The notes under the pieces: model-generated
What the model saw: only the letters and a program-made list of their open reading frames with translations
Databases searched by the model: none
Told to the model about the DNA's origin: nothing
In this document: piece after piece, positions 1-62,695 of the stretch
Layout: the number at the start of each line of letters is the position of its first letter
Position numbering within the stretch: position 1 is the stretch's first letter
Source of the DNA: Protoeuglena noctilucae
Taxonomy: Eukaryota
Reading direction: 5' to 3'
Length of the DNA: 64,000 bases
Assembly: GCA_958009085.1 (NCBI GenBank)
Contig: OY253680.1
Coordinates: forward strand, 496,001 to 560,000
Position numbers and translations under genes: made by a program

Positions 1-1167
1 ACCAGCTGCGGGAGGAGAGGCGCGGTGCGTGTGGGAGGAGCGGGGAGTGAGCCAGAGACACCCACGCTCGTCGGGGTGCCTTCACTCTGAAAGCACTGCC
101 GGGCTGTTGGCAGGCAGGTTGGGATGGCATCCCAGGTCACCTCGGGGGAGATGTCGTAGAGCTTGGCCACACACACCGCCGCCGTCTTGCGGACGTATGG
201 GTCCGTGTCGCGCAGCGCTTGCTGGAGGGGGTCGCAGATGTACTCGGTGATCTTGTCCACGCGGATGCAGCCCATGGTGCGGACGGCCTGCCGGGGGAGG
301 GGGCAGAGGGGTGAGCGGCGGCACACAGCTGTGGGGGTGGGGGCACGTTGCTGGGGCTGTCGTGCGCGACAGGCCGACAGGCGCCCTCACCAGCGCGCGG
401 ATGAGCGGGTTAGGGTCCTGCGTCAAGTCCTTCACGAACGTGTTGACCGCCTGCGGTCGCGGGAGGGCAGCACGCGTCGCCCTGACGCGTGCGTCGGTGC
501 TGTGAGCCCAATTGGGGCCCTGCGGCGACGCCCGGCCGCAGCAAAGATGCGAACACTGATTTGCTTGCGCAGCGCACCAGCAGCGTCAAATCGGGCTTGG
601 TCTTGGCGTAGTTGATGAGGTACAAGTACACGAGCTTCTTCAGCTCCAAGTCGTCGGTCTGTGGGCACGGAACCCGGCGCATCGTCCGGCTCGGACGAAT
701 GCTGCAGCTTCGTGCCATTCGGCGGCCACAGCGCCGGCCCCAGGAGCGGACTAACGGGCCAACTCTGGCGGCTCCCCCCAAGCCAGCCTGTAACGGCAGC
801 CTCCCGGGGCGACCGGGGCCACATAGCGGGCCCCGCGAGCGACCGAACCTCGTCGTTTGCAAAACAAAATCAGCTCCCCGCTTCGGGGCGAGCCGAAGTC
901 GCGGAGCGCGTGCCCCCGGCCCCGCCCTGCAGTTAAAACGCCGCGTCCCGCGCTCGCCTGCATGCATTTGACGACGTCGCCGAAGAGGCTGGACACGTCC
1001 TTCCCCACCGTCATAGCGGCGATGATGCGCTTGATGCCGTCCTTCTTGGCATTCTTGTCCGTACTGCGGATGGCCTCGCCCCACTCCACCACCTCCCCCT
1101 TCTTGGTCGTGCTGAAGAACCCCGCGTCCTTCTTCCCGCGGAACCTCGCAGCCAGGTTCTGAATCAT
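1..1167 (-). CDS. AP-1/AP-2 complex beta subunit (beta-adaptin), 5' part; continues beyond window start
   Basis: Spliced exons give [51 protein letters not shown]..|[53 protein letters not shown], the canonical beta-adaptin N-terminus. Intron 1 (659-957) is GC-AG. Confidence 0.95.
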
Positions 1168-1560
1168 CCTGGCTGCGCCGGCAGGGGCGGGGACGGGGTC
1201 CCAGGGAAGCGCACGCGCCGGGCAGGGACCTTCAGGGGCCACGCAGGCGGATCCACCCCGTCTTCGCTGAGGCTGCGGGCGCCGATGTGCAGCGATCCCC
1301 TCTAGAATGCGGTTGGCGTGGAGGGGACCGCGCGGGGGCGGTTGAAGAGGCTGTCCGACTGGCAGGGCCGGTCAGAAACGCGCCAACTGGCCCATCCGCG
1401 CTCTGCCGGACTCCCAGGAGCGAGTCAAAGAACATTTTAGCTCTGTACGAACCTCTCCGCTCGCTCCATCGAGTCGCGGAGGGCCAGGGCCGCCCTTCTC
1501 GAGTCTCCCCTCAGGCGCCTGGAGTTGCGGTCTTGACAGCGGTCGGGAGGAAGAAGGCAC

Positions 1561-3321
1561 ATGTCGGCTCTCAGCGCCTGCGGGCGGGGGGCTCGGCTGT
1601 CCGGCTGCCAGCGACCCCCCATGATTTCTTCCCAGATCATGGCGCCATCTCGGACCGCCCCGCCCCGGCGGCCGATCGCTGCCGCGGGTGAGATTCGATG
1701 CCTCGATACGAATGAGCGTCGCGGTCACGGCCATCGCGACCCCTGCGGCCCCGCACATCTCCCCGCGCGCGCAGCCCACACCCCGCGGACTGTACCCGAC
1801 GCAGCAACCCCCCAGAAGCCCGAGACGGCGAAGGAGGCGCTGCAGCGACGCAAGCGCGAGTCGGAGGAGGTCATGACACGCATTGAGAACGTCTACAGCG
1901 TGGAGGACTTGAATTCCCAGCTCGAGAGGGCCGGCGGCAAGGTGGGCCAGGCAGCCCCGCTCCCCGCGTCTTCTGAAGCGCCCTTGCCCCCCATCACCCG
2001 CGCCATCGCCGTCTCCTGCAGCTTGTGGTTCTGGAGGTGGTGAGCGACTCGGTCTGCGAGACGGGCCTGGAGGAGGAGGCGGAGGTGCAGTGGCGGCGGA
2101 GCCAGGAGGAGGTGATGCGGCCCTGCAACAACGTGAAGCACGTGTTCCAGCGTACTGCCAGAAACTGCAAGGACGTGATATTCCTGGAGCACATCGCCGT
2201 CCCGGACGACAAGCAGTCGGGTGAGGCGCGGTCCATAGGTGCGCAAGCGAGGTGACGGACGTCAGCCAGACGTGCTGCGGTGTGTTACAAAGCTCTCACT
2301 GCGCGCTTCGGGCACCCACAGCAGCTGCCCCTCATTCTCATCTACGATACCTCCCATGTGCAGAGTTCCTGTGCAAGCAGCTCGGCACCACGTCCATCCC
2401 CGCCCTCTACTTCTTCAAGGAGGACCAGCTGGTCTGGAGGCAGGAGGGGTACTTGGGCCTGGAACAGGCGAGGCTGCCGCGCCTGTGCCGCCCGGGTCAG
2501 GCCCGGCGCGGATGCTTGGCTGCCTTGCACCGGCAGGAGACTTGCACCCTTTCAAGAGAGTGGCTCCACCCCGTGAGGCGCGCAGAACCTCGGCGAGGGC
2601 GTGCTTTACTACGGCGACGCGCTCGCGGACGGCCGCGCGTCCGACCACGTGGCGGACTTGCACTCTGTGGAGGAGGTCCGGGCCTGGGTCGCGTCGCAGC
2701 CCGCCGACACGCTCGCCTGCGGTAAGCCTCAGCCGCCGCGTGCCGGTCTTGCGGGAGAGGCCTTCTCGCCGCGCCTGCTGGATGCGAGGGACTGTGCCAA
2801 TAGTCGCGAGCCTGCCTGCCCTGCCTGCCGCAGTGAACGTGGCGATGACGTCCGAGACGTGCTGCGTCCGCGTTTACCCGGCCATGCTGGCCCTGGCCAA
2901 GAACTTCAAGGGCTACTGCCACTTCGCGCGCATCATCGCGGACGAGAACGAGCAGACGCGGCCCATCCTGAGGTGAGACAGGGTTTGGGACGCAGCTCAG
3001 AGTGCAGGCATGCGTGGGGCCTCTTGTTTAGACCCGGCACCCCTGCGCCGCAGGGACCTCAACGTGATTGACATCCCGTCGTTCATCTTCTTCCGGGGCG
3101 GCAGGGAGGTCCATCGCTACGCGGGGTCGTCCCGAGGTGAGTTCAGCACTGGCGGAGTGGAACGGAGGGTGTTGCTTACACTAGCCAGCTTGCATATAGT
3201 CACCATCCTTCTCTCTCTCCCCTCAGGAGATCTCCTAGGCCAGGTCCTGTCCCTGAGCCCCGTGGTCCCCCCACCGCCGCCCGGGCAGGTGGGCCGCGGG
3301 CGTGCGAAGCGCCAGAGCTGA
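1561..3321 (+). CDS. CDSP32: CDSP32-like two-domain plastid thioredoxin with atypical active site
   Basis: Transit-peptide-like N-terminus; exons give IPALYFFK, NLGEGVLYYGD, CVRVYPAMLALAKNFKGYCHFARI, IDIPSFIFFRGGREVHRYAGSSRGDLLGQVL, matching CDSP32 architecture. About 7 introns; start codon uncertain. Confidence 0.8.
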
Positions 3322-3606
3322 GCTTTTGCTGGCGCCCAGGTCCGTGGATCAGCCCCGCTCAGTCAGCCCCGCCCATGAAGCTTGCATCCGCGGACAGCCG
3401 CCCCCAATGCGACCCCCCATGGGGTGACGCGTGGTGCTTTGCTGATACCCTAGCGGGCTGCGGTTTGCTTCAAGTCGTCTGTCAAGTTTTCCGGGTGCTC
3501 GCCCCTCCCCATCTAAGAGTTGCTGTCCAGCAGAGTGCTCTGCCGCCCCGCTTTGACCATCCATGAACCGAGACAAGCTCTCCCTGTGACAGCACAGCTC
3601 AAGCAG

Positions 3607-5160
3607 CTATGCTCGCGCCCCCCTTGGCCCCTGCGCTGTGTCAGCTGGTCGTCCGGGAGCGCCCAGCTGCGCTTGATGGCCGTTGGCGCAGTGCCGCTTC
3701 TCCATTCTGGGGCCTCCTCCACCGTTCTCCCTCGTTGCTGCGAAATGCTTCCCACCGTCCTCCCGCACGTCCTCGACCCCGACCCCACTCCTTCCCAGCG
3801 CACGGATGGCGGTGCAGGCGATGAGGTACGTCCAGTACACGTGCATAACCAGCAGCGCGCAGAGCTGCGAGGGGCGAAGCGGCGTCACCGGTCAGCTGAT
3901 TTCCAGACAGGCCTGGCTCGCGACCCTCCAACTGGTGGGGGTCTCTGATGATGGTCACCCATCAATGTGCTCGCATCGCGTCAGATGCACGGCACCCACC
4001 AGCGCTCCGAAGAAATAGTAGTGCGTCATGCCCTCCCGGTACTGCTCAGCAGTGAAGTTCGGCGACGTCTTCGGCACCCACTCCCGGGTCTGTGGCACAG
4101 AGTGGGGGACGCGCGCGGCTGGGTCGCCGCGCTGCAGGGTGCAGCTGCGCACGACGCTGGGTGTCGAGCCGGGGCGGCCTCGCCTCGAAAAGCACGGAGC
4201 GGACGACCACCGCAGGGAAGAGGTACAGACGCGTTGCCACCCAGACCCCTATGAACAGGACGAAAAACGGCTCCACCGGCAGCCCCAAGGCATTTGCGAG
4301 TTTGCCGCCGTCCAGGAACACGTCGCAGATGTCGTGGAGGAACATGGTGAGCACTCCGACCTGCGTGCATTGCCAAAAGACAAGATTCGAAGGGTCTTCG
4401 CTGCCTGCATGCCTGTGCAGGTGTGCTTGGCAAAGGCGGGCGCCGTGCCTTGAGGTAGTTCAGGACCATCGACGATACCAGGAGCCCGAGGGTGACGAAG
4501 TGGTGAGTGGCGAGGACGGGGAAGTCCCTGCGTGGGCGTGGAAACATGCCTGGCTAGGCAGCGCACTAGAGAGCGTGGAAGGCGCAACGCTCTGCCTCCC
4601 TCTGCACCTCTGCCTGGCGTCCTTGAAGAAGAGGGCGGGCAACGCGTAGAGGTACCAGCCGATCTCAGCCGCATAGGCCAGCCGCAGGTGCAAGGCCCTC
4701 GGGGCCTGGCAAGGCACGCCTGCACACTGGACCCAAAGCTGCGGGTGGGGGCGGGGGACGCGCTAGCTCGCCCTGGATGATGATGATGCTGCAGCTGCAA
4801 GCTGCTATGCCTCGCCATGTGGCTCCGCTTGATGAAGTTGGGCTCCCTCCGCAGCGCCGCGAGCGCGGCGATGCTCAGGATGCCATACGCGATGGCATTC
4901 CAGGCGGACTTGACGGCGCTCTCGACTTTGCTCTTCGACAGCGGCTTCTTCCGTCGCTCCCTGCGACGGTGGGTGCTGAGGCCATCTCCCGTTGCTCGCA
5001 GATGCCGTTCCTCTGCTGCCCACCGGGGCACTCACCCCACCGCTAGAGAGCGCCGGACGATTGCGGGGAAGAGGGTGTTGTCGAGGATCAGGCGGACAGT
5101 TGAGAAGACGCCAGCGGCCACGAGCGAGGCCGCCAAGTCTGGGTGCAGGGGCGCTCGCAT
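3607..5160 (-). CDS. LAG1: LAG1/ceramide synthase (TLC domain)
   Basis: Lag1 motif RDFPVLATHHFVTLGLLVSS..|VGVLTMFLHDICDVFL; W..TRLYLFP; LLVMHVYWTYLI..EDVRED. Two GC-AG introns (4361-4448, 4090-4183). Confidence 0.88.
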
Positions 5161-5511
5161 GGTAGGTCACCGAGCGCATGGCAAGCCCCGAGACTTTTGT
5201 GCGACGCATTCACGTCCTCAAACTAGCTACCGGCACCGCGATTGAATCGACGCGTCCTCGCAAGCGCGCCGGACGAGCGATCCCGACCTGTCGCGAGGCC
5301 CCCGCGGCCCCCTGAGAGCGCGGGGACATGGCTGAACCAGCTGTCGATGAATGCGATCACTTCCTCCATCAAGCCATCAAAGCAATTGAAGGAGCGGCAG
5401 CACCGGCATCAAGAACGGAAAATCCCTCGTCGGCAATCCAGGATTTCAACGCTGGAGAACAGCTAATGGACGCAATCTCAGAAGCAGCGATGGACAGCGA
5501 CGGCCAGCCCG

Positions 5512-8208
5512 TCACAGGGGTCGCACCGGCGAGTCAGGCGCGGGCTCGAGGGCCCACGAAGGCAGCGGCTTCGGCTTCGCGAGCTCCTCGTCCCCCTCCG
5601 ACGCCCGTTTCCCGTCCCCGTTCGGCGCACTCCGCGAGCCGAGCGACTCCAGGGCTTTCCGCTTCAGCGTCTCCAGGGATGGCATACCTCCCTCCGCCCC
5701 GCCCTCGGCCTCTGCACAGTCCCCCTCTGCGCCCCGCGCCTCCGCGCGCGAGGCGTCGGGCGGCCCGGGCAAGTCGCCAGAGCCAGCCGGAGGACCCGGG
5801 AGCGCCGGGCCCCGCTCCTCGCTCCCCGGCCCATCCGGGGACGGCTTGCCACCACTCTGGGGGCTCGGGCGCCCCTCCCGAGAGGCCGAGCGGCCGTCGC
5901 CGTGCGCGCGGTCCCCGTTGCGATCCGACGAGCGCCTACGGTCGTCTCGGCCCCCGCTTCGGCCCCGCTCCTCGCCCTGGTCATGCTCCCGCTCCCGACT
6001 CCGCTCCGTGCCCCGGCCCCGCTCCCTCTCCTTGCTATCCCCCCGCTCCCTGTCCCGACCCCGCTTCCGGTCCCTGCTCCCGCCCCGCTCCCTCTCCCTG
6101 CCACGGTCCCTGTTCCGACCCCACTCCCGCTCCCTCTCTATGCTCCACTCCCGAACCCGGCCAGCCCCATCCCTCTCTCGCCCCCTCTCCCGCTCACGAT
6201 ACCTCTCCCGCCCCCCGTCGCGGTCCCGGTACCAGCGCCGATCATCGCGCCGGTAGTAGTCCCGGCGATCGCGGGAGCGCGACCGCCCGCCGTCCCTCGA
6301 CCGCGACCTCCGCGGCGAGCGATCGTGGCCACGCTCCCGCTCCCTGTCCCGCTCCCTCGCACGCTCGCGTTCCCGCTCCCGCTGCTCGTCCCTCTCTTTC
6401 CGCCTCCGCTGCGCGCAAAGACGGAGCGGCGGGTCCTTCCCCGCGACAACTGGCCCCCGTCCGAGCGGCAGCAGCAGCCAGCCTCAATCGCCGCATGCCT
6501 GACGGGGGGCAACCAACACCTCCCTCACCTCCCACTCCTCCTCGCGGCGCCTCCGGTCCTCCTCCCGCTGTTTCCGAGCCTGCTCCCGCCGCTCGCGCTC
6601 CTCGGGCGGCGTCGGCGCCCGCGGGGGCGATCGCATGGCCAGCCTCTGTGCCGCACGGATGGCGGCGGCCTGCTGGATGAGCTGCTGCATCGCCGATAGC
6701 TTGGACTCGACCTTCCTCTTCTCCATCTCCTGAAGCAGAGGGTTCAGCTTGTTGGGCTGATACTCGGACAGCGCGTGCGTGGTGGTCGCCGCCAGGGGCG
6801 CCGGCGTCACGCGCAGCGCCCTCTCTCCCAGGTCCTTGCCGTTCATCGCGAGCGCCGCCTTGGCGGCCTCCCTGCGGGCGACACACACGTGGGCCGTCAG
6901 GGGCCCTGGGTGTGGTGGGTTGCGCGCGTGGGGCACCTGCACTAACGGTCCACCTGGGTCACCTGGTCTCGTATACCAGCGCGAGCCCCTCCGTGATGGC
7001 CTGGCCCTGCAGATATCGCCATGAAACAATCTCCCCGGCGAAGGAGAAGACCTGCTTGACCTGCGGGCATGAGGAGACCCGGATCGCAGTCAAGTTGGGG
7101 GCGGCCTGCAAGCATCGCTCGGTCTCGTGACGCACTGCCGGGCCCCGAGCATCGTCAGGGAGCGGCGCAGCAGCCGTCGCGTCGGACACGCCATCTGAGC
7201 GAGGGCCCGCCAGCATCGGTCGCCTCACAGCCTGCATCCGAACGAAGTCGATTCAGCGGGAGAGAGAGGGCGGGGCAGGGAAGCGGCCCATTGGCGTGCG
7301 CGGCAAGGGCACGGTCGCGGTTACCTTGGGCCGCGCGAAGCCTCGGGGCGCCACTGCCGGGCAGGAGAGCGATGCATCTGCAGGGAGAGGCCCGGTGGGC
7401 CCGCATCCCGGGGCCGCGCAGCAGGGGCGGGGCGGGACCCGGCCTAGAATCCACCAGTTCTCTCACCTCCTCAGGCGTCAGGGAAGGGTGGATGCCCGCG
7501 ACGTGGACGGTGCGGGAGTTGGGGTCCTTGGCAATGAGCTCGCGCTGGCGGACCTCCTCCTCATACGTGCGGCGCCGGAGCTCCTCATACTCGGCGGTGC
7601 CGGGCGCCGGGGCCTGGGAGCGAGCGCAGAGGACGTCGGCGGGGCTGCGGCGCGGGCGAGGCGCCCCAGGCGGGCCAGCCGGCAACAGGCACAGGCACGC
7701 TGCGCCCACCTTGGGTGCCGCCCCGGCCGCCGCCTTGGCCGCGTTCTTCTTCGCAACGTTGTGGTCGCGGAAGCCTGCATCGGGAGACCCAACAAAGAGG
7801 GGAATCGGCGCTCCCGCCGCGGGAACGCCGTCAATCTCGACGTGCAGCAAGTAGCTCCCTTTCGTGGGGCCCTGGTAAACACACGTGTATGTCCCGTCGT
7901 TGTTGTCGGTGACCTCCGCGGCGACCACGCGGTCCGTCTTGCGCGGCTCGGTGAGGAAACACTCCACAGCGTGGCCCCCATGCTTGAGGTGCTTGCCGTC
8001 CGCGTTGTAGCAGTGCAGGATGACCGCCACCTCCGATCCCTGCGGCCCACCCGTCACACCATGGCCTGGGGGACAGGAAGAGCGCGGGGAGGGTCCGAAA
8101 CGCGAGAGGGAGCGACGCAGAAGCCTCTCGAGGCTCCGCCAGGTCACGCCAGCGACCACGGCACCCACCTGACGCCTTGCACTTGGCGTAATCGATTTCC
8201 GCTGCCAT
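5512..8208 (-). CDS. Filamin-repeat + RRM + RE/RS-rich RNA-binding protein (putative splicing factor)
   Basis: MAAEIDYAKCKASG|HGVTGG..VTDNNDGTYTCVYQGPTKGSYLLHVEIDG (filamin/Ig fold); RTVHVAGIHPSLTPEE|VKQVFSFAGEI..AAKAALAMNGKDLGERALRV (RRM). A long RE/RD/RS exon from 6408 is in frame to the stop at 5512. Confidence 0.82.
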
Positions 8209-8467
8209 CGCGGGGCCCGGGGGGGGGTTCCCTGGCCTGGCTGGCCCCCCAGACGGTAAATATGGTCGCGAGGGTCTCTCTCAGGCCGGTTTGGATCTCA
8301 CTCGCGCTTCAGAATGCTAGGCTAGGGCCGCGAATCGCGGACAAGAAAGGCGCTGGTCAGGAAACTGTTTCACGGGAACTTAGCTCGGTCCGCCAAGTTT
8401 TACAGCGCAACACCACGGGGTTACTGTAAAGATCGCCAGGGAAACACGCTGAGATCGCCAGAGGTCG

Positions 8468-9143
8468 TCAGTCGCTCGCTTTAGCCAGCGCAAGGCCCAT
8501 CGCGCGGAGTTCCAGGTCCAGCTGCGCCTGCTCCTCCATCAAGAGCTCCCTGCGAGAAGATACGGCCCTGAAACGTCGGCACATGGATGGAGAGCATGGC
8601 ATGGGCATCCCAATTTGATGCACAGGCTTCATGGGGATGGCCATGCGCGTGCCATAGGGCGAGGAACAGCCGAAAACCCCACCTCAAGCGGCTCTTCTTC
8701 TCCTCCAGCTTCGTCAGCATGTACTCCTGCTTCGCTGCGATCTTTCCGTCGTTCTGTGACCCAGGACACGGCGCGGCATTCCACTGCGACATGTCTGGCC
8801 GTTCCCAGCGTGCGCGGCGTCCTTCACAGCGACAGGCGCCGCGAATGATGGCTCGGGTACGAACCCTCTGGGCCTATCCTCACCGTCTCCGCTAGACAAT
8901 TCCGTTGGCTTGGCCCCGCCTCGTCCCGCTGAGCCGTGCGCTCGTGCCGCGCCGCCACCTTGTTGGCTCGCTGGAGGTCATTCACATGGCCCACTGCGGA
9001 GTCGCGGCAGGTCACAGGGTCTTATTCTGACCGCGAAGAGGGGCACAACTGCCACTGTCACTCGCAAATGTGTGCCCACCTGCGCCAGCGTGCACTTCGT
9101 TGGCCTGTACCAGGCGCCGAATGTTCAAGGGAACCTTCGTCAT
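8468..9143 (-). CDS. CFAP141: Small coiled-coil axonemal protein, CFAP141/C1orf189-like
   Basis: Four short exons joined at GT-AG sites: MTKVPLNIRRLVQANEVHAGA|VGHVNDLQRANKVAARHE..|..MLTKLEEKKSRL|RELLMEEQAQLDLELRAMGLALAKASD*. The C-terminal RLRELL..ELRAMGLA pattern resembles CFAP141. TGTAA lies downstream at 8400-8404. Confidence 0.6.
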
Positions 9144-9463
9144 CCTGCCCTTCCCGCCCTCGGCCCGGAAAACGTGCAGAAAGCCGGCGCAATGCGAGCG
9201 AGCAACACTAACGCTGTCCAGCACTGTGTAGCGCATGCGGGTCGTGCACGTTGTCTCTCCTGCCTTAGTTCAACCGAAGAGTAACACAGGAAGCCGGGGT
9301 GGAGCGGCCTGAGAGCCCGGCGGCAGGCTCCAGCAGGGCAACTTGCCAGATCTTGCCAAGTGTTGAGCGGCACGAGTGAGAGGCGACGTTCAGCAGCAAC
9401 GCAACGAGGACCAAACGCACTCCTGTTGTCGCTCGAGACTGACCTGACGACGCATGAATGCCC

Positions 9464-11613
9464 ATGAAGCTCGTCACGTGGAACATCAACGGGCTCAAGT
9501 CAATCGTCAAGCAGCACGGGTCGCTGCGTCGCTTCCTCGACAGCCTAGACGCTAATATCGTCTGCCTGCAAGGTGCTTCGCCTAGCAAGCATCGCTTGGT
9601 CGGCCTGTGCCACAGGCCGCTCTCCCGTGCCCTGGCCAGCTCGAATTCCCACTCGTCCGCCGCTGCAGAGACCACGATCTCGAAATCCGACCTCGACTCG
9701 TCGATGGCTGTCACGGACGGCTGGGACTCGTTCTTCTCCTTTAGCCGCACGCGAGTGAGCGGCCGTGGCCCTAGGCGCACCGGGCGAGCCTGCACACGTC
9801 CTGCCCAAACCCCTGCAGCGTGCCCGCTTGCCCTCAGGACGGCTACAGTGGCGTGGCCACCTTCTGCCGAGAAGACACGGCGCGGTGCCTGCATGCGGAG
9901 GAGGGTGTGGCCGGCATCGACCCCCACTGCGGCGGCGCCCCGCGGCCCATCGGCTGCGTGGACGCCCGCACGTGCGCGCTGCAGGGCGTGGCAGGCATGG
10001 GAGAGCAGGCGGAGTCGCTCTTGCATTGGGTGGACTCTGAGGGCCGCTGCGTCATCACGGAGCACGAGTCTCTCGTCGTCATCAACATCTACGCCCCGGC
10101 CATCACGGGCGAAAGCACGGAGAGAGCCAAGGACCGGATGGACGTCAAGGCGAGTGGCACTAAATTGCTTGGATGTGAAGCATGTGGCTGACTTTACAGA
10201 CACAGTGTGATCAATCGCACCCCCGTGTATGGCTGGAACGCAGCTGGCAATGTACCAAGGCCTGCTGTCCCGCATCCGGGCCATATCGGAGGCCCTGCCC
10301 GCAAAGGCGATCGTACTCGCTGGCGACTTCAACATCAGCCCATGGTGAGCTCAGCTGCGAGCACCGCATCGGCCCAGGCACTGCAGCGCTCTGTGCAGAT
10401 GGCAACACGTTGCCACCCTCAACTCGCCCGCAGTCCCATCGACTCGTGCGACCCCGGCCCTCTCGCGGACTTCGATCTCCGCCCCGACCGCGCCCTGCTC
10501 CTCTCCTCCTTCCTGTCACCAAGAGGCCCATTCGTTGATGCCTTCCGCCTCGTCCACCCGCATGCCACTGAGCAGTTCTCGTGCTGGAACACGGCCACGG
10601 GGGCACGCAGCAACAACTACGGCACCCGGATCGACCTCGTCCTTTTGGGGGCCCCGAGAGCCGTCGCGGAGGCCGAGGGCGGCGGTGAGGCGTGGGCGGC
10701 GCGGGCTGTCACCTCTTGTGACATCCACGCGGATGTCCAGGGCTCGGACCACGCGCCGGTGTCGCTGGTGCTGGCTCTCGGGGACACGGGGGTGGCGGCG
10801 TGTGTGTCTGACAGCCGCCCCTCAGAGCAGGCTGAGGCGATGCGGGCGGGGGACATCGCTGGGCCCCGACGGCCGTGCCCGCCTCTGAGCAGCCGGGCGA
10901 TGTTTCGAGCGCGGCAGATCGGGCTGCGGGAGGTGTTCCGGGTGGCAGAGCCCAGGGCAGAGCCTGGGGCAGGGGAGCAGGCTGGTTTCGGGGGGGATGG
11001 CGTGGCACTGGGAGAGGGGAGGGGCGGTGGCAGGGGTGGCGAGGCTGCAGGGAGGACCGGGCAAGCGGGGGGGGTGGCGCGAAGTAGTGGGGTGAGGGGC
11101 AGGGCAGACCCGCGGGCCAAGGCGACGGCGCGGGGGCTGTCAACAGGTCAGACGACGCTGTGTGGCTTCGTGGGGCGGCGGTCGGATGCACAGCAGGCAT
11201 CGCGGGAGGTGGGGGGCGTGGGAGTGCAGACATCGGGTGCACAGTCCGACGCCGGAGACGGGGACCGGGTTGGTGTACCAGCAGAGCCCCCAGACTCGAG
11301 GGAGGCAGCACCTGGCGCGATGGAGGCTGCCAGTGTGCGGTTAGAGGGTGCAGAGATGGAGAGTGGCGCTCCAGGGCCCCATTCACCAGAGCCCCGGGCG
11401 GCGTGGGAGGCCTTGCGAAAGCGCATGGCTGTCCCACGATGCCGGGGCCACGGGGAGGCGTGCGTGGGCCGCGTGGTCAAGAAAGCTGGGCCAAATCAAG
11501 GTCGGTTGTTCTACGTGTGCGCGCGCGCTGATGGGCCCCCACCCAACGGCAGGTGCGAGCACTTCGAATGGGCTTATGAGCGGACGGTGCGAGCCAAAAA
11601 AGGCGCGAGTTGA
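9464..11613 (+). CDS. APE2: AP endonuclease 2 (ExoIII family) with C-terminal GRF zinc finger
   Basis: MKLVTWNINGL, IVCLQE, GYSGVATF, DSEGRC, AGDFNI, FSCWNTATGARSNNYGTRID, GSDHAPV, CRGHGEAC..GPNQGRLFYVC..CEHFEW. GC-AG intron 10150-10243. Confidence 0.95.
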
Positions 11614-12043
11614 CAGCTGTCGACGTGCCGATGTTGCTTCAACGCCAAGTGCTGTAGGCGCTATCCGGCAGCGGTGAAAGGGTGCGTGCAATGCTGCAAC
11701 GGGCAAACGATGCTTGAAGACGTGGAACGTGCCATGATGCGGCATGGAAAGGACAACACAAGAACAGGGCTACGTGCTCCGCACAGCCGCACGGCTGGCA
11801 GCACCCTGCGTGGTGGCCCTGCGAGGGTACGCGCTGCACGCCCGGGCAAGCAGAGGCGCGAGCCCATGCAGACCCTGGAAGGCGGCCGACCGCTGCATGG
11901 CGCGACCCGGGCCTGGGAACTGCAGAGGAGAGATAGGAACGCTAGCTCGACCCGGAGAGACGTTGATCACCGCGAAGGCGCTGATGGGACACCCGCAGCC
12001 CTTGCCCAACCTCACCGATACGAGCGCTGGGTCTCTCCGCCCC

Positions 12044-13162
12044 TCACATCCCGCCCCGCTCTCCAGGGCTCCTCCCGACCCTCTCCACCATCTCGTAGTA
12101 GTCCCTCGACCCAGGGTCCTCCTCGGCCCCCATCCCTCGCACTCCCTCGCTCAGCGGCCCCACCGCGCCCGTGTACGGCTCATGCTCGGGAGTCTTGCTG
12201 GTCCCAGCGGCCTTGAAGATGCCCGTCTCCTGGATGACGCGACGCCCGGGGCGGTACTCCTCCTGCATGCGCCTGGTCTCGCTGGCACTCATGACCCCAG
12301 TCGCCCTCGGCTGCTGAAGCCCCGGCTGCACTGCTCCCGCCGTCGGCTGCAGCGGCCCCCCGGTGCGGGTCGGGAACACCGTCGCCGGTGCCACCTCCTC
12401 GATCACCGCCACCTCCATCTCCTCCGGCGTGGTCGTCTCCTCCTCCTCTCCGCTCTCCCCGCTCTCGTACTCCTCGCGCCGCCCCTCCTGGGCGCGGCTC
12501 GGGCCCGCCTGCTGCACAGGGCCAGCAGGCGGTCCCTCCGGATGCCGCAGGTGCGGCTCGACGCGCACGGGGACCATGGGCGACTTGCGAGAGCGGCCCT
12601 TCCGATCCTTCATCCAGCTCATGAACGGCCGGGGCTCTGCGGAGGCAAGCGAGAGGGTCACGTTGGCAGAGCTCTAAGCGCACAATCCAACCGCTCCACG
12701 ACACATCCCAGCTCGCCAGCAAGCCCCTAACCAAGACCCGGGGCTGGGCTGTGCCAGTACGCCAGGCCACGCCGCAGTCGCCGCACTCCAGCCATGCGAC
12801 AGAGCATCTGCCACCCGCCCAACACCCGCATCCCCATCCACGCAAGCGAATCGCAAGCACGCCCCCATGACCCACTCACTCTTCTTCCTCAGCTTGTCCT
12901 CCTCCGTCAGCGGCACGTCGCCCGCTGCGATGGCCGGGGGGCCCCGATCTCCGCGCGCCTGGTGGTACTTCTCCCTGCCCTGGTCCCGCATCGACTGCGC
13001 CGCGCCCATGGCCACGTCCCGGGCCTCGGACAGCGCCTCCTTGCCCCTCTGAGTGGCCTTGCGCATGGCGCCCTTGGCCCGCCCCATGCGACCCTTGCGC
13101 TCGCCGCCCCTCGCGCCCTCCTGCACCTCCCGAGGCTCACGCCCCTGCCTCTCGACCTCCAT
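12044..13162 (-). CDS. Hypothetical hydrophilic protein with LEA-like N-terminal helix
   Basis: Exon MEVERQGRE..GRAKGAMRKATQRGKEALSEARDVAMGAAQSMRDQGREKY..KK joins in frame via a GT-AG intron to PRPFMSWMKDRK..ERGGM*. Charged low-complexity composition; termini uncertain. Confidence 0.55.
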
Positions 13163-13359
13163 CGTTACCTGGCTCTCTGGATCGATAGGCTCAATCCGCC
13201 CTCGCAGCTCGCAGCCACCCTCAGGAGTCAACTGCGTCGCACATCAGAACCACAACTCAGTGTCACGACCCCACTACAACGCTTGAACCCTCCCCCCCAG
13301 CCCTCTATGTCCGCATGAGCACAGCGCAGTTTGCTATGCCACACACGCCAGTCCTTGCC

Positions 13360-14557: not shown

Positions 14558-14817
14558 GTCACCCGCTTGTCTTGAATGAATTCCACATCGAGAGGCTCTT
14601 TGGCGTCTCTTGTGCGCGAGGCTGACACGGTGGGGTCTGGCGAAATGCCCGCGATCTCCCCGACGCCGCGCTGCCCCCCCCTCTTAAATCCATAATAAGA
14701 CTGCCACTCGCGGCGCTGGACTCTGCCTGTTGTGATTCCTCCTACCTCGTCCACGCCGCGCCGCTCCCAGAGTCGTTCTCCGGGCCGGCGGGTCGGCCTT
14801 ACTGACACATCGTGCCC

Positions 14818-16576: not shown

Positions 16577-16585
16577 CAATGCTAG

Positions 16586-48495: not shown

Positions 48496-48523
48496 CACGC
48501 GCCGCGGCGCATGAGGAGGGACG

Positions 48524-50631: not shown

Positions 50632-53600
50632 TCACTTGCGTCCCTTCCTGGCCTTGGACACCTTCTTTTTCTCCTTCTTGGGCATCTTGCTCTTCCTCCT
50701 CTCGCGGTTCTCCTCCTTCACCTTTTTCTTGTGCTCCTTCATCGCCGCCTTGCGCTCCTCACGCGTCATCCCAGGCGCGCCCTCCCACGCGACGCGGCCG
50801 CCCTCGTCGCTGCCGCTGCCGTCGCTCTCGTCCTCGCTGCCGTCATCATCGAGGTCATCGTCGCCATCATCGTCTTCATCCTCGCTCGCACCCATGCCCT
50901 CCCCACCGCTGCGAGCGTGCGGGAGCTCGCTCGTGAGTGATGCCTGCCACGCAAGCATGACTATGCCAAGCCCCACCAAGCAGCCCTCACCTCCCATCCC
51001 CGCTGCTCTCCGCCCTCTCCGCCCCCTCGCCCTCCCCCACCTCCCCCCGCCTCTCCGCCGCCCCCTTCTTTCGGTACTCCGCCCACACCTTGCACAGCTC
51101 CGCGGCACGCTTGGCGCCCCCCACGATCATCCCCTCCGGCAACGGCCCGTCCTGCGCACTCCCTTCCTCCCCAGGCCCCCCATCACCCTCCTCCACCCGC
51201 AGGTCCCTCAGCGTCATCACCAACGCCGAAGAACCCTCCTCACCCTCGCCCTCACCCCCCTCACCCTCGCTCGCGCCTGACTCAGCGCCTGACTCAGCCC
51301 CAGGGTCACCCGCATGCCCAGTGCCGCCCTCGTCACCCCGGCTGTGCTCACCGCCCCCTGCCGCCCCCACCGCCTCCACAGCCTCTGCCCCGACCCTTGC
51401 CTCGGTTCCCCGCGCCTCCCGTGGCGCGTCCCCAGCCTTGGCGGCCGCCTTGGCCGCACGCCTCCCGACGAAACGGTGCCCAGCGCTGGCCGACGCAGAG
51501 ACGGCACCGGGGCCCACCACACGCCCATGCGCACTCTGCAAGACAAGACGAGCAGCACGTGGGGGGTGAGGCAACGTGTGGCTTACATCAACACGGCATT
51601 CGGCGCTTCGTGCATGCCACCACTCCACACCCACAGCTGTACAACACCAGCACACCCCGCAGTCACCTTGCCATATGGGATGGCGAACCCCTCCCCCCCA
51701 TCCGCAGCCTGGTCATACAGCCACTCGTTCCCGTCCTTGGCTCCCCGACTGTCCGCATCCTTCAGTTTGTAGTCCTTGTAATCCTTCCCCGTCAACTCGG
51801 CCGCCTTGTCCAACACCCGAGGCTCCAACTGCGCCCCCGTCAGGTCGTCCCTCAACCCTGCGAAAGACCCAGTGTGAGTAGGTCAGATACAGATACACGG
51901 AACGAACTGACAGGCAAGGATGCCGAGGCTGGAATCGTGGCCAGCTGCCGCGCAAGAGCTTTTGACAAACAGGCTCCCCACCCAACACCGTTTCCACACT
52001 CACAGTAACTCACATCAGCTCACAACACTTCACACCCTTACCTCACCCAGGATGGTCTGGTAGAAGATCTCCCTCTCGCGCCCCTCGCGCCGGTCCTCGA
52101 CATCCCTCTCGTAGGCCGCCACCTCGTCGAGACGCCTGGGGATGAACGCGTGCTGGAACACCGCATCGGCCACCTCCTCCTCCGCAGACAGGTCCAGGGG
52201 ACGGGAACTGGCCAGGTCCATCTGGGCACAGGGAGCGGGGCGGGAGCGAACGCTTGCCTGTACGCGTGGCACCTAGTGAGTCATGCTGAAGTGCAGAGGT
52301 TCTGGTGTCGAAAACCTGGTGCTATCTAAGTTGATGGTAGGGGTGGTGGCACAGACCAGCTCAGTAGGTACTGATGGAGGCAGCGTGTGCGATAAGCCCG
52401 TCACCCCATGCGACACGCCTGCCCATGCACACACCATCGCATGCCACTCACCAGCGCCTGCAGCGTGGCGTCCTGGTTCGTGTCGTCCACGGTGGGGTCC
52501 ACCACGAACTCGAACAGCTCCCGGGTGGTGAGGGTGGCGACGCCGCTGCGACGGAAGTACGCGTTAACGTGCGCGCAGTCCTCTCTCAGAAAGGTAAGGG
52601 CGTGGGGATGATCGAGATCCACCGCTTGGGACACGTCGATGACCCACACCTCGCCCTCGTGCCACTGGGGGTGGTGGGGGATGGGGAGGTGGTGGATGAA
52701 AGGCGACAGGGCGGGTGCGAGGGCCAGCCAGGGTGCTGAGTGGTGCTGTGTGAGAGCAGGGGACAGCAGCTGGGTATACCGCGCTGTTGCCCACCAGTCC
52801 TGCCCACCTGCTACACTACTGGTCCCTCTCTCACCAGCCACCTGCACCCTCACCCTCAACTGCACCGCTTCTTGCCCCTCCCTCACCAGCAAGTTGTACT
52901 CGGACAGGTCCCCGTGCACGAGCCGGCACTCCTGGTAGAGCTTGCGCAGGATCAGGAGCAGGTCCAGGTAGGCCTCCCGCAGCTCTGCCTGACTCAGGCG
53001 GGCGTCGCGGATGCGCGGGGCAGCGGCGCCAGACTTCCCCAAAAACTCCATCACCAGGACGTGGAGCTTCAGCTCCAATGGCTGCATTTGAGTGAATGAT
53101 ATGAAGTGGTTGGCATCATGTAATATCGTCGTCGCAGTGTCGAGCTACAGAGATAGGGTCGGGAATCGTGGGCTCGATAGAGGCTGACTTGGCTGCAACG
53201 CGGTGCAGGTGAGGCGGGGCCACTCGCCTTGGGGCAGCGGATGCCGGCCTGGTGCAGGCGGTGGAGGTTGCGGAACTCCTTCTCCGCCCACATGGCCACC
53301 ATCTTGCGGGGGTTTTTGGAATACCCTCCCCGGAAACGGTAGTCGCCAGAAACGTACCGGTCCCGGTCCTTGAAGACGAGAATCGAGGTCTTAAAGATCT
53401 TGACGGCGACGTCCGAGCCCGACGACGTCTCGGCCGTGTACACGTTGGCCTCCTTGCCCGTCGACACGCAACCGTACATCTTGCTGCGCGAGGGAGGGGC
53501 GGCGAGTGAGTGGGGCTGAGTGAGCGGGGACGGGTGAGCGGGGGTGGCAGCATAGACGGGACATGCAGGCGGGGAAGTAAGCGTGGACAAGGAGACATGG

Positions 53601-55057: not shown

Positions 55058-56592
55058 ATGCCGGCCTCGCTCGAAGCCCTCGCCGCGCCGCGACTCTCAG
55101 ACGCGCTTTACTCGGCCCTCCTTGCAGACTTCGTGCTTGTATCCTCGCATCTAGAGGTCCCCGGCACGCTTAACATCGTCGCTCACGCACTGGCTCGCGC
55201 GGCGGAGGCGTGCGGGCAGGGACGGGGCCAGGCTGCGCGCGTACTGTGCGTGTGTGTAGACGAGGGGCCCGACGAGCTCCGGGCGCTGATCCCCGACGGG
55301 TCGGCGCGCACCGTCGCATTCCTCGACGCTTATCGCGACGCGGCGGGATGGCTGCGGGACGCACCAGGCCCTGAGGGTTGCCCGGGGGTGCTGTCCCCGG
55401 GCGGCCTCGATCGCCTGATGCGCTGCATCGCCGAGCACCCGCTGGCCCAGCGTGCCAGGGACGCCGCAGGGACCCTCGCGTCCGGTTCCGAGCCGTGCCG
55501 ACCTCTCATCGTCGTCATATACTCCCTCAGGCGAGCCCCAGTCGGTGTCGCGCCTGCTGCGTTTTGCGACGGCCCCCAAGGCGCAAACCTCGTCGTTCTG
55601 CGGCCCCCACAGTTCCCTGGCCGTGGTACATGGCGCCCCCGCAGCCGTGACCTTTGCTCGCTCTCTGCGCGCCGCCCCTGGGGTGTCGTCCGTGGTGGCG
55701 GTAGTGCACGGCGATGCGCACTCAGCGGGGGACCGAGCCGCGCTGACCTCCGGCGCCGCCGCCGCCGCGGCGATGGTTCCGGCGTCTGCGCTGCAGTGTG
55801 ACCTCGCGGAGGCGAAAGAGGGCTGGCGGCCGGTGGGGTCACTGCGGACATGGGCCGTCAGGGTGCGCGCTTGGGGTGGCGCGGCGCAGCGGGCGTCCAC
55901 GCAGCTATTCGGGTTGGGAGGCGGGGGCAGCGCAGTGGGCGGAGTGCGGTTCGTCGAAGCGCCGCGGGCGCAGGGCGGGGCGAAGGACTTGGCAGCAGCC
56001 GCTCTGAAGGTGACTTGCCGGTGTGCATGCGGCATGTGATCCCCAGCTGCTCCTACCGATGCCGATCGATACGACACCAGAGTATCATTCGTAGATGATC
56101 GCAATAGTCTTTGCAAAGCCCATCGTGACCGGTCGCTACGCTGGTGTCACGCAGGGGGAGCTGGGGCCTGGCGCGAGGGACGGTGGTGCTGGGGGTGCAG
56201 CACCTGCACAGGACGCGGTGGAGGAGCTGAGCCGGCTCAGCGGCATGGATCTGCGCGTCACGGAGGAGCAGCAGCGGGCGAGGGAGCAGGTGAGACTGTG
56301 AGCATACGCAGGCAGCTGCTACCAGTCTTGGGCGGAACTGGCAAGGAGCTCACTGCCCGTGTCCGGCGGCGTTTGATCGCAGGTGGTTCTACCGTACGAG
56401 CACCGAGGGCAGTCGGCGAGATACGCCACCACTGCGTTCGAGGAATATTTGCCGCCAGCGGCGGGCGGGCGCGGGGCGGGGCGTCCGGTCGAGGGCGTGG
56501 GCAGCGGGAAGCTCGGCCACATTTTATACGTGAGGGACAGCGAGAGCGAGCACGACAGCGACGAGGACCCCGACGACGATTTGGACATTTGA
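55058..56592 (+). CDS. ELP5: Elongator complex protein 5-like
   Basis: C-terminal MDLRVTEEQQRAREQ|VVLPYEH..GHILYVRDSESEHDSDEDPDDDLDI* is typical of ELP5; internal AFLDAYRDAAGW and VVHGDAH. Confidence 0.75.
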
Positions 56593-58796: not shown

Positions 58797-60632
58797 ATGA
58801 GCCTGGCGGCAGAGCTGGATGACCTCAAAAGCCTCCTCACCCCGCGACAGTCCAAGAGGGCAGCGGCAAATAGGTCCCCAGGCCCGTTCACCGCTTCCCG
58901 CCATGCATCGCTGGCGACCAGCGGGGGCCTGGGGGCCCTCTCACCCCGCTCACCAGGTGACGAGCCAGGAGAGGCCGAGGGTGCGTTTGGTGTGAGGGAA
59001 ACAAACGACGTTTGCAAGTGCCTGCCCGCACTGCCACGCGGAGGCCCATCGCGCCCCGCGGAGCGCTTCGGCCATCCTCGCATGTCGGCCGCAACAACGC
59101 CTTCGTCCGAGCCCCGCGGCCCCGCCCGTGCGCGAGCAGCCGCGGCCCTGTCTCCTCGCGCAGGTTCCACTTTTCCCGCGGGGGATATGGCGACGACCGT
59201 TCCCCGGAGCTTGAAGAAGGCCGAGGGTGTCGTGGCATCGCTCTCGCGCTCCCTGTCCCTTGCCGGTGAGAGCGGGGCGCAGCCAAACGTGCCAGGCGGA
59301 CGCCACCACGCCTATTACCGGCCCTCGCACCGCTGCTGCCTGGCCGTCCCTGGCCTCGCAGCCTCAGCCACACGCACCCGTACCACGGCATCCCACCGCA
59401 TGCGTGCCCTGGGCCTGCAGACCGCGAGATGGAGGACGCCGTGCGCCAAGCGCGGGAGCTGCACCGGCAGGCGCTGGCGCAGAAGGACCAGGAGATCGAC
59501 GAGCTGCGGCGCGCGCTGGCTGTCAAGGACCGTGCGGTCGACACGGCGCGGGAGTCGACGGCGTCGCGCGTGACCACGCTCGAGGCGCGGGTGAGGGACC
59601 TCGAGGCGCAGCTGGCGGACTCGGCGGCGGAGTCCCGGCAGCTGCGGGACCTCGTGGGGCAGGCGCGGCAGGACCAGGCGGCGGCGGAGGCCAGGGCGGA
59701 CAGCGAGCGGCAGCAGCTGGACGCGGAGAGGGCGTCGTGGGAGGCGCGGCTGGAGGCGGAGCGCGCGACGTGGCAGGCGCGCGTGGATGCCGAGCGGGAC
59801 CGGGCGCAGCGGGAGGCCGCCCAAGCGGAGGAGCTGCGGGTGCGGCTGGCCCGGGCGCAGGCGGCCGAGCAGCAGGCGTCGCGGAAAGCCCAGGTCGCGG
59901 CGGAGGAGCACACGCGCGCGGCGGCCGCCGCGCGGTCGCGGGAGAGCGAGTGGCAGAGCACGATGGACGACAACAGGTGCCTGGAGTGTGCGGGTGTCAC
60001 CATGTGGAGACACGCGGGCTTGAGCGGGCCAGGAGAGAGGGGTGCTCATCCAACTGCGTCGCAGAAAGATGCGGGAGGAGCTGGCGGAGGCCCGGTCTCT
60101 GGTGGCCCAGGCCCGGGAGGCGCTGCGGCTGGAGGAGTACAAGCGCCGTCAGGCGGTGTCCAAGCTGCACGCGGAGCGCAAGGGCCGTCTCAAGGCCAGC
60201 GAAGTGGACGAGATCAAGCAGCGGCTGCTGGGGGAGCGCCGGGCGCGGAAAGCCCTGGAGCAGTGGCTGCAGAGCGAGCTTAAGGCGAGATGCCGGGCTT
60301 CAGCTGAAGAACTGGGGCTGCAGGTCGAGAGCGGGGTCGGGCGTTCTGCAATTCGCTTTGCATGTGTGCGCTCGCAGTCTCGTGAGGAGATGGAGGTGCT
60401 CTTCACGGCGTTGCGGGACGTGGCGCTGACCAAGCCGCAGCTTTCCGCGGAGGTCGCGGAGCTCATCCGCCTGCTGCGCAAGTACGAGGACCGGCTGGGG
60501 GGCATGCATGCCCAGGGGGCGGCTGAGCCGGGGCACGTGGCGGCGTCTTCGATGCTCGACCGCGACAGCCGGGCGCTACGGGAGGAGATATCCAAGCTGC
60601 GCGCGGTGCTCCAGGAGAAGCTCGCGCTCTGA
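58797..60632 (+). CDS. Coiled-coil protein of unknown function
   Basis: MSLAAELDDLKSLL; long E/R/A/Q heptad-like exons; ALEQWLQSELK|SREEMEVLFTALRDVAL (GC-AG intron at 60285). Confidence 0.75.
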
Positions 60633-60762
60633 GAGACAGCGTAGCGCAGATCACCTAGCAGTTTCAATGCCTAGGAAGTCTATTGGCCATGTCATGCTAG
60701 CGGCTTGTCGGTGGCGGTCCGAGGCAAGCGCGCACTGGCATGCCTCGGCCGCGTCCCCCGCG

Positions 60763-62695
60763 TCACGAACCCGTCGATAAGAAGCCCCCGAACTCCAGCG
60801 GGGCGTCCCCTTCGTCACCCGAAGACCCCGAGCTCTCATCGGATGCCTCCTCGGCCTCCCCCGCGCGCAGCCACGCAGCCATCCTCTCCGCCACACCCGC
60901 CATGTCTCGTGCGACCATGCCACCCCCCTCTGCCTCCCCCGCGTCCCCCGCCAGCGCCTGAGCAAGCGAGGACAGGACGTCCGCCACGGCATCCCGCCGG
61001 TCCCCACTCGCCCCATCCATGGGGCCCACGCCGCGAATCACCCGCGCCAGAGATTCCAGGGAACCCGATTTGTGCATCCAGTTCTGCAGCAAAGGGCGCC
61101 AAACGAGTCACTGTCCCAGCAGGGACCGATTGCCAGCACCTTTTGACACCGCGTGACGGTGGCGACAGAGGCTCGACGCTGGCGTTGTGGGTAAGCAGCG
61201 CAGGCATTTCCAATCATCCGCTTCCCACCTGGCCCACTTGCACGAGGCGCGTCGTCAGCTGCACCACCTCTGCAAGGACTTCGAACCCGTCCCCCTCTGC
61301 CAGTGCCAGCTGGTCGACCACGAGCGCCAGGATGCGCAGCGCACGTGCCGCGGTGCCCTCGAGCCTCAGGCAGTCGTCGCCGTCGCAGTCGCCCCGCTGC
61401 AGTCGGCCCACGCAGCCATCCAGCACGTGCAGCGCGACGTCGGCAGCGCCCAGCTCCACCATCCCCTCGCCGAGATCTGGCATCGCGTACAGCACGTTGT
61501 ACACCGCCATGGCGGCCTTCTGTGGAACAGGAAAACGTAAGCAGGCTATACTTAGCCCGCTGAGGTGGAGGCGACACTGACCTTTGCATGCGTGCATCGC
61601 GCCGCCCCTCACCTTGCCAACAAGAGGCTGCTCTGCAGCGTCTGCCATGCCCTCCAGGATCGTCCCGAGGAGGGTGAAATCCTTTCGCACCAGAGATATC
61701 ACGAACTTGGGATTGTTAGATGCCGCGTTGGCCAGGACGCCCATGGCGGCCGCGCGCAGGTCCGGGCCCTCTTGGCTGCGGAGGTACGGGGCCAGGAACG
61801 CCAGGCCTCCCACCGTCTCGTGGATGAAATCCACGGCGGTGTCTGCGACGACAGAAAATGAGCACGGAAGCGCTTCGGCTTGTGCATCGCAGCAACAGCC
61901 TGCGACCCACCCAGGGACGCCGCGCGCAGCGCAGCACGCACCGATGTTGGTCACAAGATCTGCGAGGAGGTGTAAGCTGGAGACCTTGTCCTCGGAGCGC
62001 ACGTCCTCCCCGTTCACGTCCCGAATGATGCGCTGCATGAGCTCCACCGCCGACGGAAATCGGTTATCCAAGTGGTCGAGGAGACCCGCGAGCTCCTCAC
62101 GCGCCTGAGAGCAAGTCGCGAGGGGACCTGCGTCGCATCGGCGGCCTGCGAGCCCGCCACGGCGGATGGAACCCGGTGCGTTCGGCTTCCCGCGGAGAAA
62201 TGCCCGGCGCGAAGGACCTCGCCTTAGCCAGGTCCTCTGGCGACATCTCGGCAAGCTTCATCATCTCATCGGGGTCCGAATTCTCTGCGAGAAAGCGCGG
62301 GGAGCGCGAGAGGGTGGTTGCAAGCTCAGCCCTTTGCAGGTGGCCGGCCCGGCCGCCAGCCGTGACCGGGCGCCGTTCTCCGCCGCAAGCAGCTTCTGAC
62401 GCTTCGTATGAATGCAGCGCGACTGCGTGCCGCGGCTCTCATGCACTACGGGCGGGGTGCGCGGGCCCGCGGTCCGCCACTTACCAAGGCCCCAGCGCAA
62501 GAGATGCTGGATCCCCTCGAAGTTGATATCGCCTTCCGGCACCGTGTTGCCAAAGCCATCACTGGGCACATCAATGTGGGACAGATCGACCCTCACGTCC
62601 GCCGCGGAGGCGGGCACTGCCACGAAGGACGACAGCACCACCAGGACCAACACGGCCAGGGCGCCGAGCGCCCATCCGGGTCGCACTCGTCCCAT
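60763..62695 (-). CDS. SIL1: Hsp70 nucleotide exchange factor SIL1/Fes1-like with signal peptide
   Basis: Hydrophobic N-terminus WALGALAVLVLVVLSSFVAVPASA; HLLRWGL|ENSDP (Fes1 motif); LADLVTNI|DTAVDF..GGL; AAAMGVLANAASNNPKFV (ARM repeats). Confidence 0.8.

Follow-up and report, generated by a model that had tools for sequence, protein, structure and literature searches.

The 64,000-nucleotide (nt) stretch of Protoeuglena noctilucae contig OY253680.1 that is analysed here (hereafter the window, with positions counted from its first letter) carries about 30 intron-rich nuclear genes, closely packed on both strands. The genes that could be named with Pfam encode a beta-adaptin, a TLC-domain protein, a MurB-like reductase, an M16 peptidase, an ABC1 kinase, DDX6/Dhh1, the alpha subunit of succinyl-CoA ligase, a RIO kinase and an EamA transporter. 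Base composition over the 64 kb is 66.9% G+C, and the source is a very GC-rich marine green alga. When words sampled from a 10-kb stretch were looked up in sequencing runs, four runs of a single marine metatranscriptome study contained 35-60% of them, and DNA runs labelled 'organism A' contained 99%. The succinyl-CoA ligase of the window was 100% identical to a 326-residue open reading frame (ORF), P0154, and no more than 83-85% identical to the enzymes of named green algae; no identical named protein was found, and a single-gene tree of this enzyme left the window sequence unplaced among the green algae. As no named protein came near to identity, the alga is judged to be distinct from Micromonas pusilla. 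The subject of this study is a class of introns in these genes that begin with GC rather than GT and end with AG (GC-AG introns).

The original prediction, made from the sequence alone, had placed GC donors at 18 introns of the window, each preceded by an exonic AG, with 16 starting GCGAG, one GCAAG and one GCACG. This was borne out at 18 of the 18 coordinates, GCAAG being found at 34561 and GCACG at 4448(-). Introns were also called with a two-strand Viterbi gene model, in which a 3-periodic Markov coding score was combined with weight matrices for donors and for acceptors, the first of these built from GT introns only. Four GC-AG introns were added to the 18 in this way, one of which (46857) is transcript-verified and three of which are likely. 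All 22 start with GC and end with AG, and in each case the protein produced fixes a single pair of boundaries. They are listed here with their donors (a slash marks the splice junction) and the evidence for each; P0001 is, like P0154, an ORF that is taken to derive from spliced RNA.

659-957, minus strand: intron of the beta-adaptin-like gene, donor cag/GCGAGC; Adaptin_N positions 14-52 reach the exon end and 53-79 follow from residue 1 of the next exon; gene model.
2468-2585, plus strand: intron with donor cag/GCGAGG; RNA-contig joint in 3 of 3 RNA runs.
4090-4183, minus strand: intron of the TLC-domain gene, donor gag/GCGAGG; gene model; the upstream exon corresponds to TLC 101-160; length not a multiple of three.
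4361-4448, minus strand: intron of the TLC-domain gene with an odd donor, aag/GCACGG; TLC continuity and gene model.
4739-4815, minus strand: candidate intron, absent from the original prediction, donor atg/GCGAGG; gene model; T at -2, a weaker context.
10150-10243, plus strand: intron with donor aag/GCGAGT; gene model; read-through meets a stop after 39 nt; length 94 nt.
15391-15484, plus strand: intron of the MurB-like gene, donor cag/GCGAGG; FAD_binding_4 2-48 before and 62-112 after, approximate; no in-frame GT within 60 nt.
17555-17687, minus strand: candidate intron, absent from the original prediction, donor tag/GCGAGT; gene model.
18849-18951, minus strand: intron with donor cag/GCGAGC; end of an RNA contig piece at 18952 and gene model.
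20487-20585, plus strand: intron of the M16 peptidase gene; P0001 mapping, GC..AG only.
20936-21080, plus strand: intron of the M16 peptidase gene; P0001 mapping, GC..AG only.
21700-21843, plus strand: intron of the M16 peptidase gene; P0001 mapping, GC..AG only.
27629-27795, plus strand: intron of a protein kinase gene, donor aag/GCGAGA; Pkinase 122-170 runs to about 27574 and 176-204 continues in another frame from about 27790, and because of this change of frame an intron is required; the gene model picks the GC donor.
34561-34690, plus strand: intron of the DDX6/Dhh1 gene, donor aag/GCAAGT; DEAD continuity and a gap-free GIAK/LHKCK junction.
35637-35808, plus strand: intron of the DDX6/Dhh1 gene, donor aag/GCGAGG; gap-free DFPK/NSETY junction.
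46183-46283, minus strand: intron of the succinyl-CoA ligase alpha gene; P0154 mapping (100% identical), GC..AG only.
46757-46857, minus strand: intron of the succinyl-CoA ligase alpha gene, absent from the original prediction, donor cag/GCGAGC; P0154 mapping.
49078-49247, plus strand: intron of the EamA transporter gene, donor cag/GCGAGC; the EamA 7-97 match stops at the donor; gene model.
53145-53227, minus strand: intron of the RIO kinase gene, donor aag/GCGAGT; RIO1 1-74 runs to the exon end and 74-142 resumes 20 residues into the next exon.
55531-55612, plus strand: candidate intron, absent from the original prediction, donor cag/GCGAGC; gene model.
60285-60377, plus strand: intron of a coiled-coil protein gene, donor aag/GCGAGA; spliced form gap-free against three homologues.
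62105-62222, minus strand: intron with donor aag/GCGAGG; gene model; no in-frame GT within 60 nt.

Transcripts gave direct evidence that GC-AG introns of the window are removed from RNA. Contigs from three RNA runs and one DNA run were mapped onto window positions 2400-22399, which gave 36 joints in all, 15 of them listed; the 13 RNA joints among those listed comprised 12 GT-AG joints and one GC-AG joint. The latter connects 2464 with 2583; given its ambiguity of 3, it corresponds to GC..AG at 2468-2585, and it was seen in each of the three RNA runs but not in the DNA run. In addition, a piece of an RNA contig (457 of 525 nt) stops precisely at 18952, the exon edge of the 18951(-) donor. RNA cover is missing over some stretches, such as 12405-13738, from which nothing was concluded.

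The ORFs P0001 and P0154 were found through protein searches with single exons, and both lie uninterrupted on contigs of about 3 kb. We take them to derive from spliced RNA, because they are uninterrupted whereas the genomic copies are interrupted. P0001 spans 611 amino acids (aa) and is 99% identical to the product of the M16 peptidase gene. Every cut of the genomic sequence that yields the exact protein was enumerated by script. The mapping of P0001 demands GC..AG at 20487-20585, 20936-21080 and 21700-21843, together with GT..AG at 20200-20402, 20725-20826, 21389-21490, 22174-22296 and 22470-22556, and that of P0154 demands GC..AG at 46183-46283 and 46757-46857 plus GT..AG at four other introns. 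Removal at the RNA level was thereby exact for six of the 22 GC-AG introns (2468, 20487, 20936, 21700, 46283 and 46857) and partial for 18951. Altogether, 26 introns are transcript-supported and six of these are GC-AG, a fraction that is no estimate of the rate, since the two ORF-mapped genes were picked for having GC sites.

Of the 18 predicted sites, five have their exact boundaries from spliced RNA or transcript ORFs (2468, 20487, 20936, 21700 and 46283), 18951 fits the RNA contig end, nine are supported by homologues or Pfam profiles (957, 4448, 15391, 27629, 34561, 35637, 49078, 53227 and 60285), and three come from the gene model only (4183, 10150 and 62222). Across the 957(-) junction the Adaptin_N profile runs without a gap. 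At 34561 the DEAD profile covers 24-76, is followed by a 38-aa exon and continues over 115-161, and at 4448(-) the TLC profile covers 72-99 and then 101-160, the upstream match being weak (E 0.028). Continuity of Pfam profiles is approximate at 15391, 27629, 49078 and 53227. The spliced DDX6 model was compared with nine homologues, and no gap was found at GIAK/LHKCK (34561) or DFPK/NSETY (35637). When DDX6 exons were used as queries, the 120 matches listed (best, 90% identity) did not include the transcript of the organism itself, and they were used as homologues only.

The intron at 60285-60377 is 93 nt long, a multiple of three, and free of stop codons, and its retention would insert 31 aa into the protein. 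A search of 1.84 billion representative sequences with this gene detected a 374-aa relative with 60% identity and two more distant ones. These three (P0272, P0275 and P0286) all aligned without a gap to the form spliced at 60285, and none of them has the 31 aa. Metagenome contigs were also searched with P0154; the 80 loci kept were all uninterrupted, at 81% identity or less, and none was the intron-bearing genomic copy of a relative; these loci were set aside.

The share of GC-AG introns was estimated with the gene model under different priors for GC donors. A prior of 0.1 gave 139 introns, 24 of them GC-AG, and a prior of 0.01 gave 138 introns with 22 GC-AG and retained all 18 predicted sites. 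At 0.001, 17 GC-AG introns were called and 16 of the 18 sites were kept. Between priors of 0.01 and 0.3 the number of GC-AG calls was steady at 22-25. Two dubious 'ATG/GC' calls with a 3-nt first exon (33462 and 42987) were removed from the count. As a result, 22 of 137 introns (16%) are GC-AG. The original prediction of about 18 among roughly 130 introns (about 14%) was sound and slightly understated. Its statement that C at +2 is used far above the usual level of about 1% was also supported; the share over 61 species is given as 1.3% in the available text of Iwata & Gotoh 2011 (PMC3033335). Intron density in the window is about 4-5 per gene (137 introns in 30 models).

We examined how far these calls can be trusted. 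At priors of 0.01 and 0.1 the model recovered 25 of the 26 transcript-supported introns. Decoy donors were admitted in the same manner as GC: at priors of 0.1 and 0.01, GG donors gave 10 and 3 calls and GA donors 13 and 6, none of which had an AG/GNGAG context; for GC donors the numbers were 24 and 22, with 19 in this context. The 7-mer AGGCGAG occurs 33 times over both strands, and 19 of the occurrences serve as donors. With a prior of 1e-6, which effectively allows GT only, four of the 18 predicted sites were left and all six transcript-verified GC introns were lost, in agreement with the earlier expectation that standard predictors would mis-model these genes.

The GC donors clearly depend on their flanking sequence. 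An A at -2 was present in 21 of the 22 GC donors and in 57 of the 115 GT donors, and a G at -1 in 22/22 and 108/115, respectively. The corresponding figures were 20/22 and 106/115 for G at +3, 21/22 and 73/115 for A at +4, and 22/22 and 89/115 for G at +5. The full AG/G.GAG context was found in 19 of 22 GC donors versus 12 of 115 GT donors (Fisher p 1.8e-12), and within the transcript-verified subset in 6/6 versus 5/19 (p 0.003). The near-fixed AG/GCRAG context of the original prediction is thus present in the GC donors; this 'fixed' context is the compensation known from GC-AG introns at large and not a signal specific to the lineage. As for the rest of the intron, GC and GT introns displayed no clear difference in acceptor strength (p 0.26), pyrimidine content or length, the median lengths being 102 nt and 120 nt, respectively.

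Among the donors with AG/GYGAG, position +2 is C in 19 and T in 12 (61% C), and C/(C+T) in intron interiors is 0.626. In the full context, the C:T ratio at +2 thus matches the neutral ratio. When all donors were sorted jointly by -2A, +2T and +4A, 29 had kept all three and none had lost all three. A single loss was found at -2A in 44 donors, at +2T in 20 and at +4A in 28, and two losses in 16. Within the GT donors, -2A and +4A were negatively associated (odds ratio 0.33, p 0.007).

These features are best understood, with a probability that we put at roughly 0.7, if the GC-AG introns are ordinary U2-type introns under GC-biased substitution, about 16% of which have come to carry C at +2, compensated by the remaining pairs with U1. 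GC-biased substitution would erode the donor positions occupied by A or U, namely -2A, +2U, +4A and +6U, and splicing would need only a threshold of pairing with the 5' end of U1 small nuclear RNA (snRNA). Most donors would thus have given up one of three A/U pairs. The change from U to C at +2 would be one of three roughly equal losses, tolerated only where -2A, -1G, +3G, +4A and +5G are intact, and this requirement would render AG/GCGAG near-invariant without any special signal. That the introns exist, that their share in the window is high and that GC donors depend on their context is established by the data; the threshold of pairing and the mutational drive are what we infer. GC-biased substitution had been named as a possible cause in the original prediction, and it fits the 61% C in AG/GYGAG donors against 63% in introns as well as the single losses at A/U positions.

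Several observations weigh against this interpretation or the numbers on which it is built. Among the 13 RNA joints listed, one is GC-AG. The origin of P0001 and P0154 from transcripts is deduced from their uninterrupted ORFs on 3-kb contigs. The context statistics come mostly from a gene model trained on the window itself, and its penalty on GC favours GC donors with strong flanks. A neutral GC prior adds 12 GC donors with weak context, of which one takes the place of a verified GT intron and the other 11 are uncertain; none was counted. The model also mis-modelled the 5' end of the M16 peptidase gene, where it predicted an intron at 19837-20402 in place of the true one at 20200-20402, and doubtful terminal GT introns overlap neighbouring models at 3149-3755(-) and at 11237-11925(+) with 11819-12047(-), and therefore the denominator is about 130-137. 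GC introns tend to lie in phase 0 and to shun phase 1, where -2 is the GC-rich third codon position; this is no more than a trend (phases 16/2/4 for GC versus 55/30/30 for GT, p 0.08). All evidence comes from this single 64-kb window, and the rate is a figure for the window rather than a genome-wide count. Finally, the rate does not follow from GC content alone: only 2.7% of the introns are GC-AG in Micromonas RCC299, at 64% GC, according to the accessible portion of PMC3033335, and another factor may act.

The last point bears on an alternative that we consider doubtful, though the strongest of those weighed, in which changes to the splicing machinery of the lineage (in U1 snRNA, U1C, Luc7, U6 or Prp8) have removed the discrimination against C at +2. 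The high GC-AG share would then stem from looser recognition and not solely from mutation pressure. The share of C in the full context matches neutral composition (61% versus 63%), Micromonas species of similar GC content differ widely (22.2% versus 2.7%), and Iwata & Gotoh themselves suggested base modification or proteins of the U1 small nuclear ribonucleoprotein (PMC3033335, as far as its available text goes). Because the C:T ratio of 19:12 among AG/GYGAG donors equals the neutral intronic ratio, one might go further and suppose that +2 is selectively neutral wherever the other U1-pairing positions are intact, the spliceosome no longer reading +2U owing to relaxed proofreading by U1, U6 or Prp8. 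We regard this, too, as rather unlikely; if true, the alga would offer a natural setting in which to find out why +2U is required. On the other hand, GC donors still require near-perfect flanks (19/22), which indicates that C at +2 does not come free, and the 5' end of U1 is canonical in Aureococcus and Micromonas in what is available of PMC3033335. Nothing that Rfam or Pfam detected in the window bears on the splicing machinery; the Rfam scan of the 64 kb matched no family and no snRNA gene. An altered U1 or U1C is not needed to explain the GC-AG introns of the window.

A second alternative, which we judge very improbable, is that introners (intron-generating transposons) spread GC donors by insertion, as has been proposed for some dinoflagellates. 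Introners do occur in the two algae for which the largest GC-AG shares have been published (PMC11282704, in its accessible text), the link between the two facts being an association of our own. However, a self-BLAST of the window gave six repeat pairs, none of which joined introns of different genes, and when the interiors of 139 introns were all compared with one another, no two GC introns matched at E<0.01. Moreover, several of the GC introns lie in highly conserved genes and have ordinary lengths. With no sequence family among the introns in either comparison, an origin from introners was rejected.

It is slightly less probable still that the GC sites are artefacts of modelling, with nearby GT dinucleotides as the true donors or with coding sequence that is retained. 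Three of the predicted sites (4183, 10150 and 62222) and three of the added ones come from the gene model alone, and 60285-60377 is both a multiple of three and stop-free. Nevertheless, six GC-AG introns are exact at the transcript level, and the homologues of the 60285 gene are without the 31 aa. The nearby-GT alternative, which the original prediction had named as a possible refutation, was checked: at none of the 24 predicted GC introns did a GT..AG cut give the same protein, and the GT dinucleotides in frame within 60 nt of the GC donors mostly lacked the donor consensus of the genome. That these are U12-type introns of the minor spliceosome, for which nothing speaks beyond the non-GT start, can be practically dismissed, as their donors (GCGAG, GCAAG and GCACG) do not follow the ATATCC or GTATCC consensus quoted in the available text of PMC3033335 and, apart from +2, match the GTGAG consensus of the window's own GT donors.

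A number of other features were noted in the window. The MurB-like gene that holds the GC-AG intron at 15391 lies at 14818-16576 (+) and encodes FAD_binding_4 and MurB_C domains, as in UDP-N-acetylenolpyruvoylglucosamine reductase, an enzyme of the peptidoglycan pathway, here in a eukaryotic alga. The M16 peptidase gene occupies 19882-22722 (+). The 30 relatives listed besides its own transcript ORF are 34-46% identical; those with names are bacterial or metagenomic 'zinc protease / pitrilysin' proteins, and no eukaryotic name appears among them. P0001 reveals the 5' exon of this gene (19882-20199), which, with the GT intron at 20200-20402, was missed by the gene model. At 20036, the window and the DNA run have G and an RNA contig of run X1 (depth 32.8) has C, which makes P0001 differ from the window by one residue; strain variation within the sea sample, not editing, is the probable source of this difference.

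At 13415-13756, the final exon of one gene contains diverged tandem repeats, with units about 79% identical over 258 nt; the product of this gene resembles the CsbD, YtxH and LEA-like families, with matches that fall short of the Pfam cut-offs. A 58-nt tandem duplication (93% identity) lies at 17263-17382 inside a predicted intron of 474 nt, and the contigs of the DNA run break there (17310 / 17353). The GC-AG intron 49078-49247 contains a short internal tandem repeat at 49150-49253 (55 nt, 82% identity). A radical-SAM gene at 38936-40225 (-) encodes a C-terminal DUF3641 domain (Pfam), a pairing known from bacterial arsenosugar-synthesis (ArsS-type) enzymes. A short exon at 8468-8548 (-) gave a weak match to CFAP141, a cilia- and flagella-associated protein (E 0.002, below the cut-off), a hint that the alga may be flagellated.

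The practical consequence of these results concerns annotation. Gene finders that accept GT only, or that use a weakly weighted GC prior of about 1%, mis-model about one in six introns here. The GT-only setting loses introns even in succinyl-CoA ligase, a gene without an identical named protein, so the annotation of this lineage still lies ahead. The phenomenon as such is already published and therefore opens no new question, nor would it surprise a specialist. The window is a small-scale example of the pressure of base composition acting against splice-site recognition, in which a donor can seemingly spare roughly one A/U pair, +2U being among those that it can do without, and it neatly illustrates how a donor-site threshold that tolerates single losses would look.

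The GC-AG introns of mammals and plants are of the U2 type and show a stronger match at the other U1-pairing positions. Such introns have reportedly been described, by Burset in 2000, Thanaraj and Clark in 2001 and Kralovicova in 2011, as making up about 1% of introns with a compensating consensus. The introns of the window resemble them in being U2-type, in having C at +2 and in their stronger flanking matches. They differ in that GC-AG introns are about tenfold rarer in mammals and plants, whereas in the window C is the majority state in full-context donors (19/31).

Closer relatives of the phenomenon are found in other algae. In what is available of Iwata & Gotoh 2011, GC-AG introns account for 39.6% in Aureococcus anophagefferens, 22.2% in Micromonas pusilla and 7.7% in Chlorella sp., high shares are linked to G+C content, the 5' ends of U1 are canonical, and the origin is called 'an enigma' (PMC3033335). 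The window likewise belongs to an algal nuclear genome very rich in G+C; its introns are short and GC-AG introns reach a two-digit percentage of them, its 66.9% G+C falls in the range of this class of GC-rich algae (about 65-70%), and their link to G+C content fits the composition match that we observed. The organism is another one, and the pattern of single losses and a threshold was not met in the part of their text available (PMC3033335). Our search of the literature on GC-AG introns in Micromonas, Chlorella and GC-rich green algae found no report for a matching organism; one may exist.

In dinoflagellates, introns derived from introners are rich in GC-AG borders, as stated in the accessible text of a 2024 review (PMC11282704). 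The window has a similarly high share of such borders; the dinoflagellate introns, unlike these, belong to repeat families left by transposons, and the window contains no repeat family. The nearest figures are those for Aureococcus strains (14-17%) and Pelagomonas calceolata (about 14%), which are credited to GC content in the available part of a 2024 preprint (bioRxiv 10.1101/2024.10.30.620910) and nearly equal the 16% of the window. Those algae are stramenopiles with fewer than one intron per gene in the same source, whereas the alga of the window is green and has about 4-5. High GC-AG shares in GC-rich algae have been in print since 2011, and what is new here is another organism that shows the pattern.

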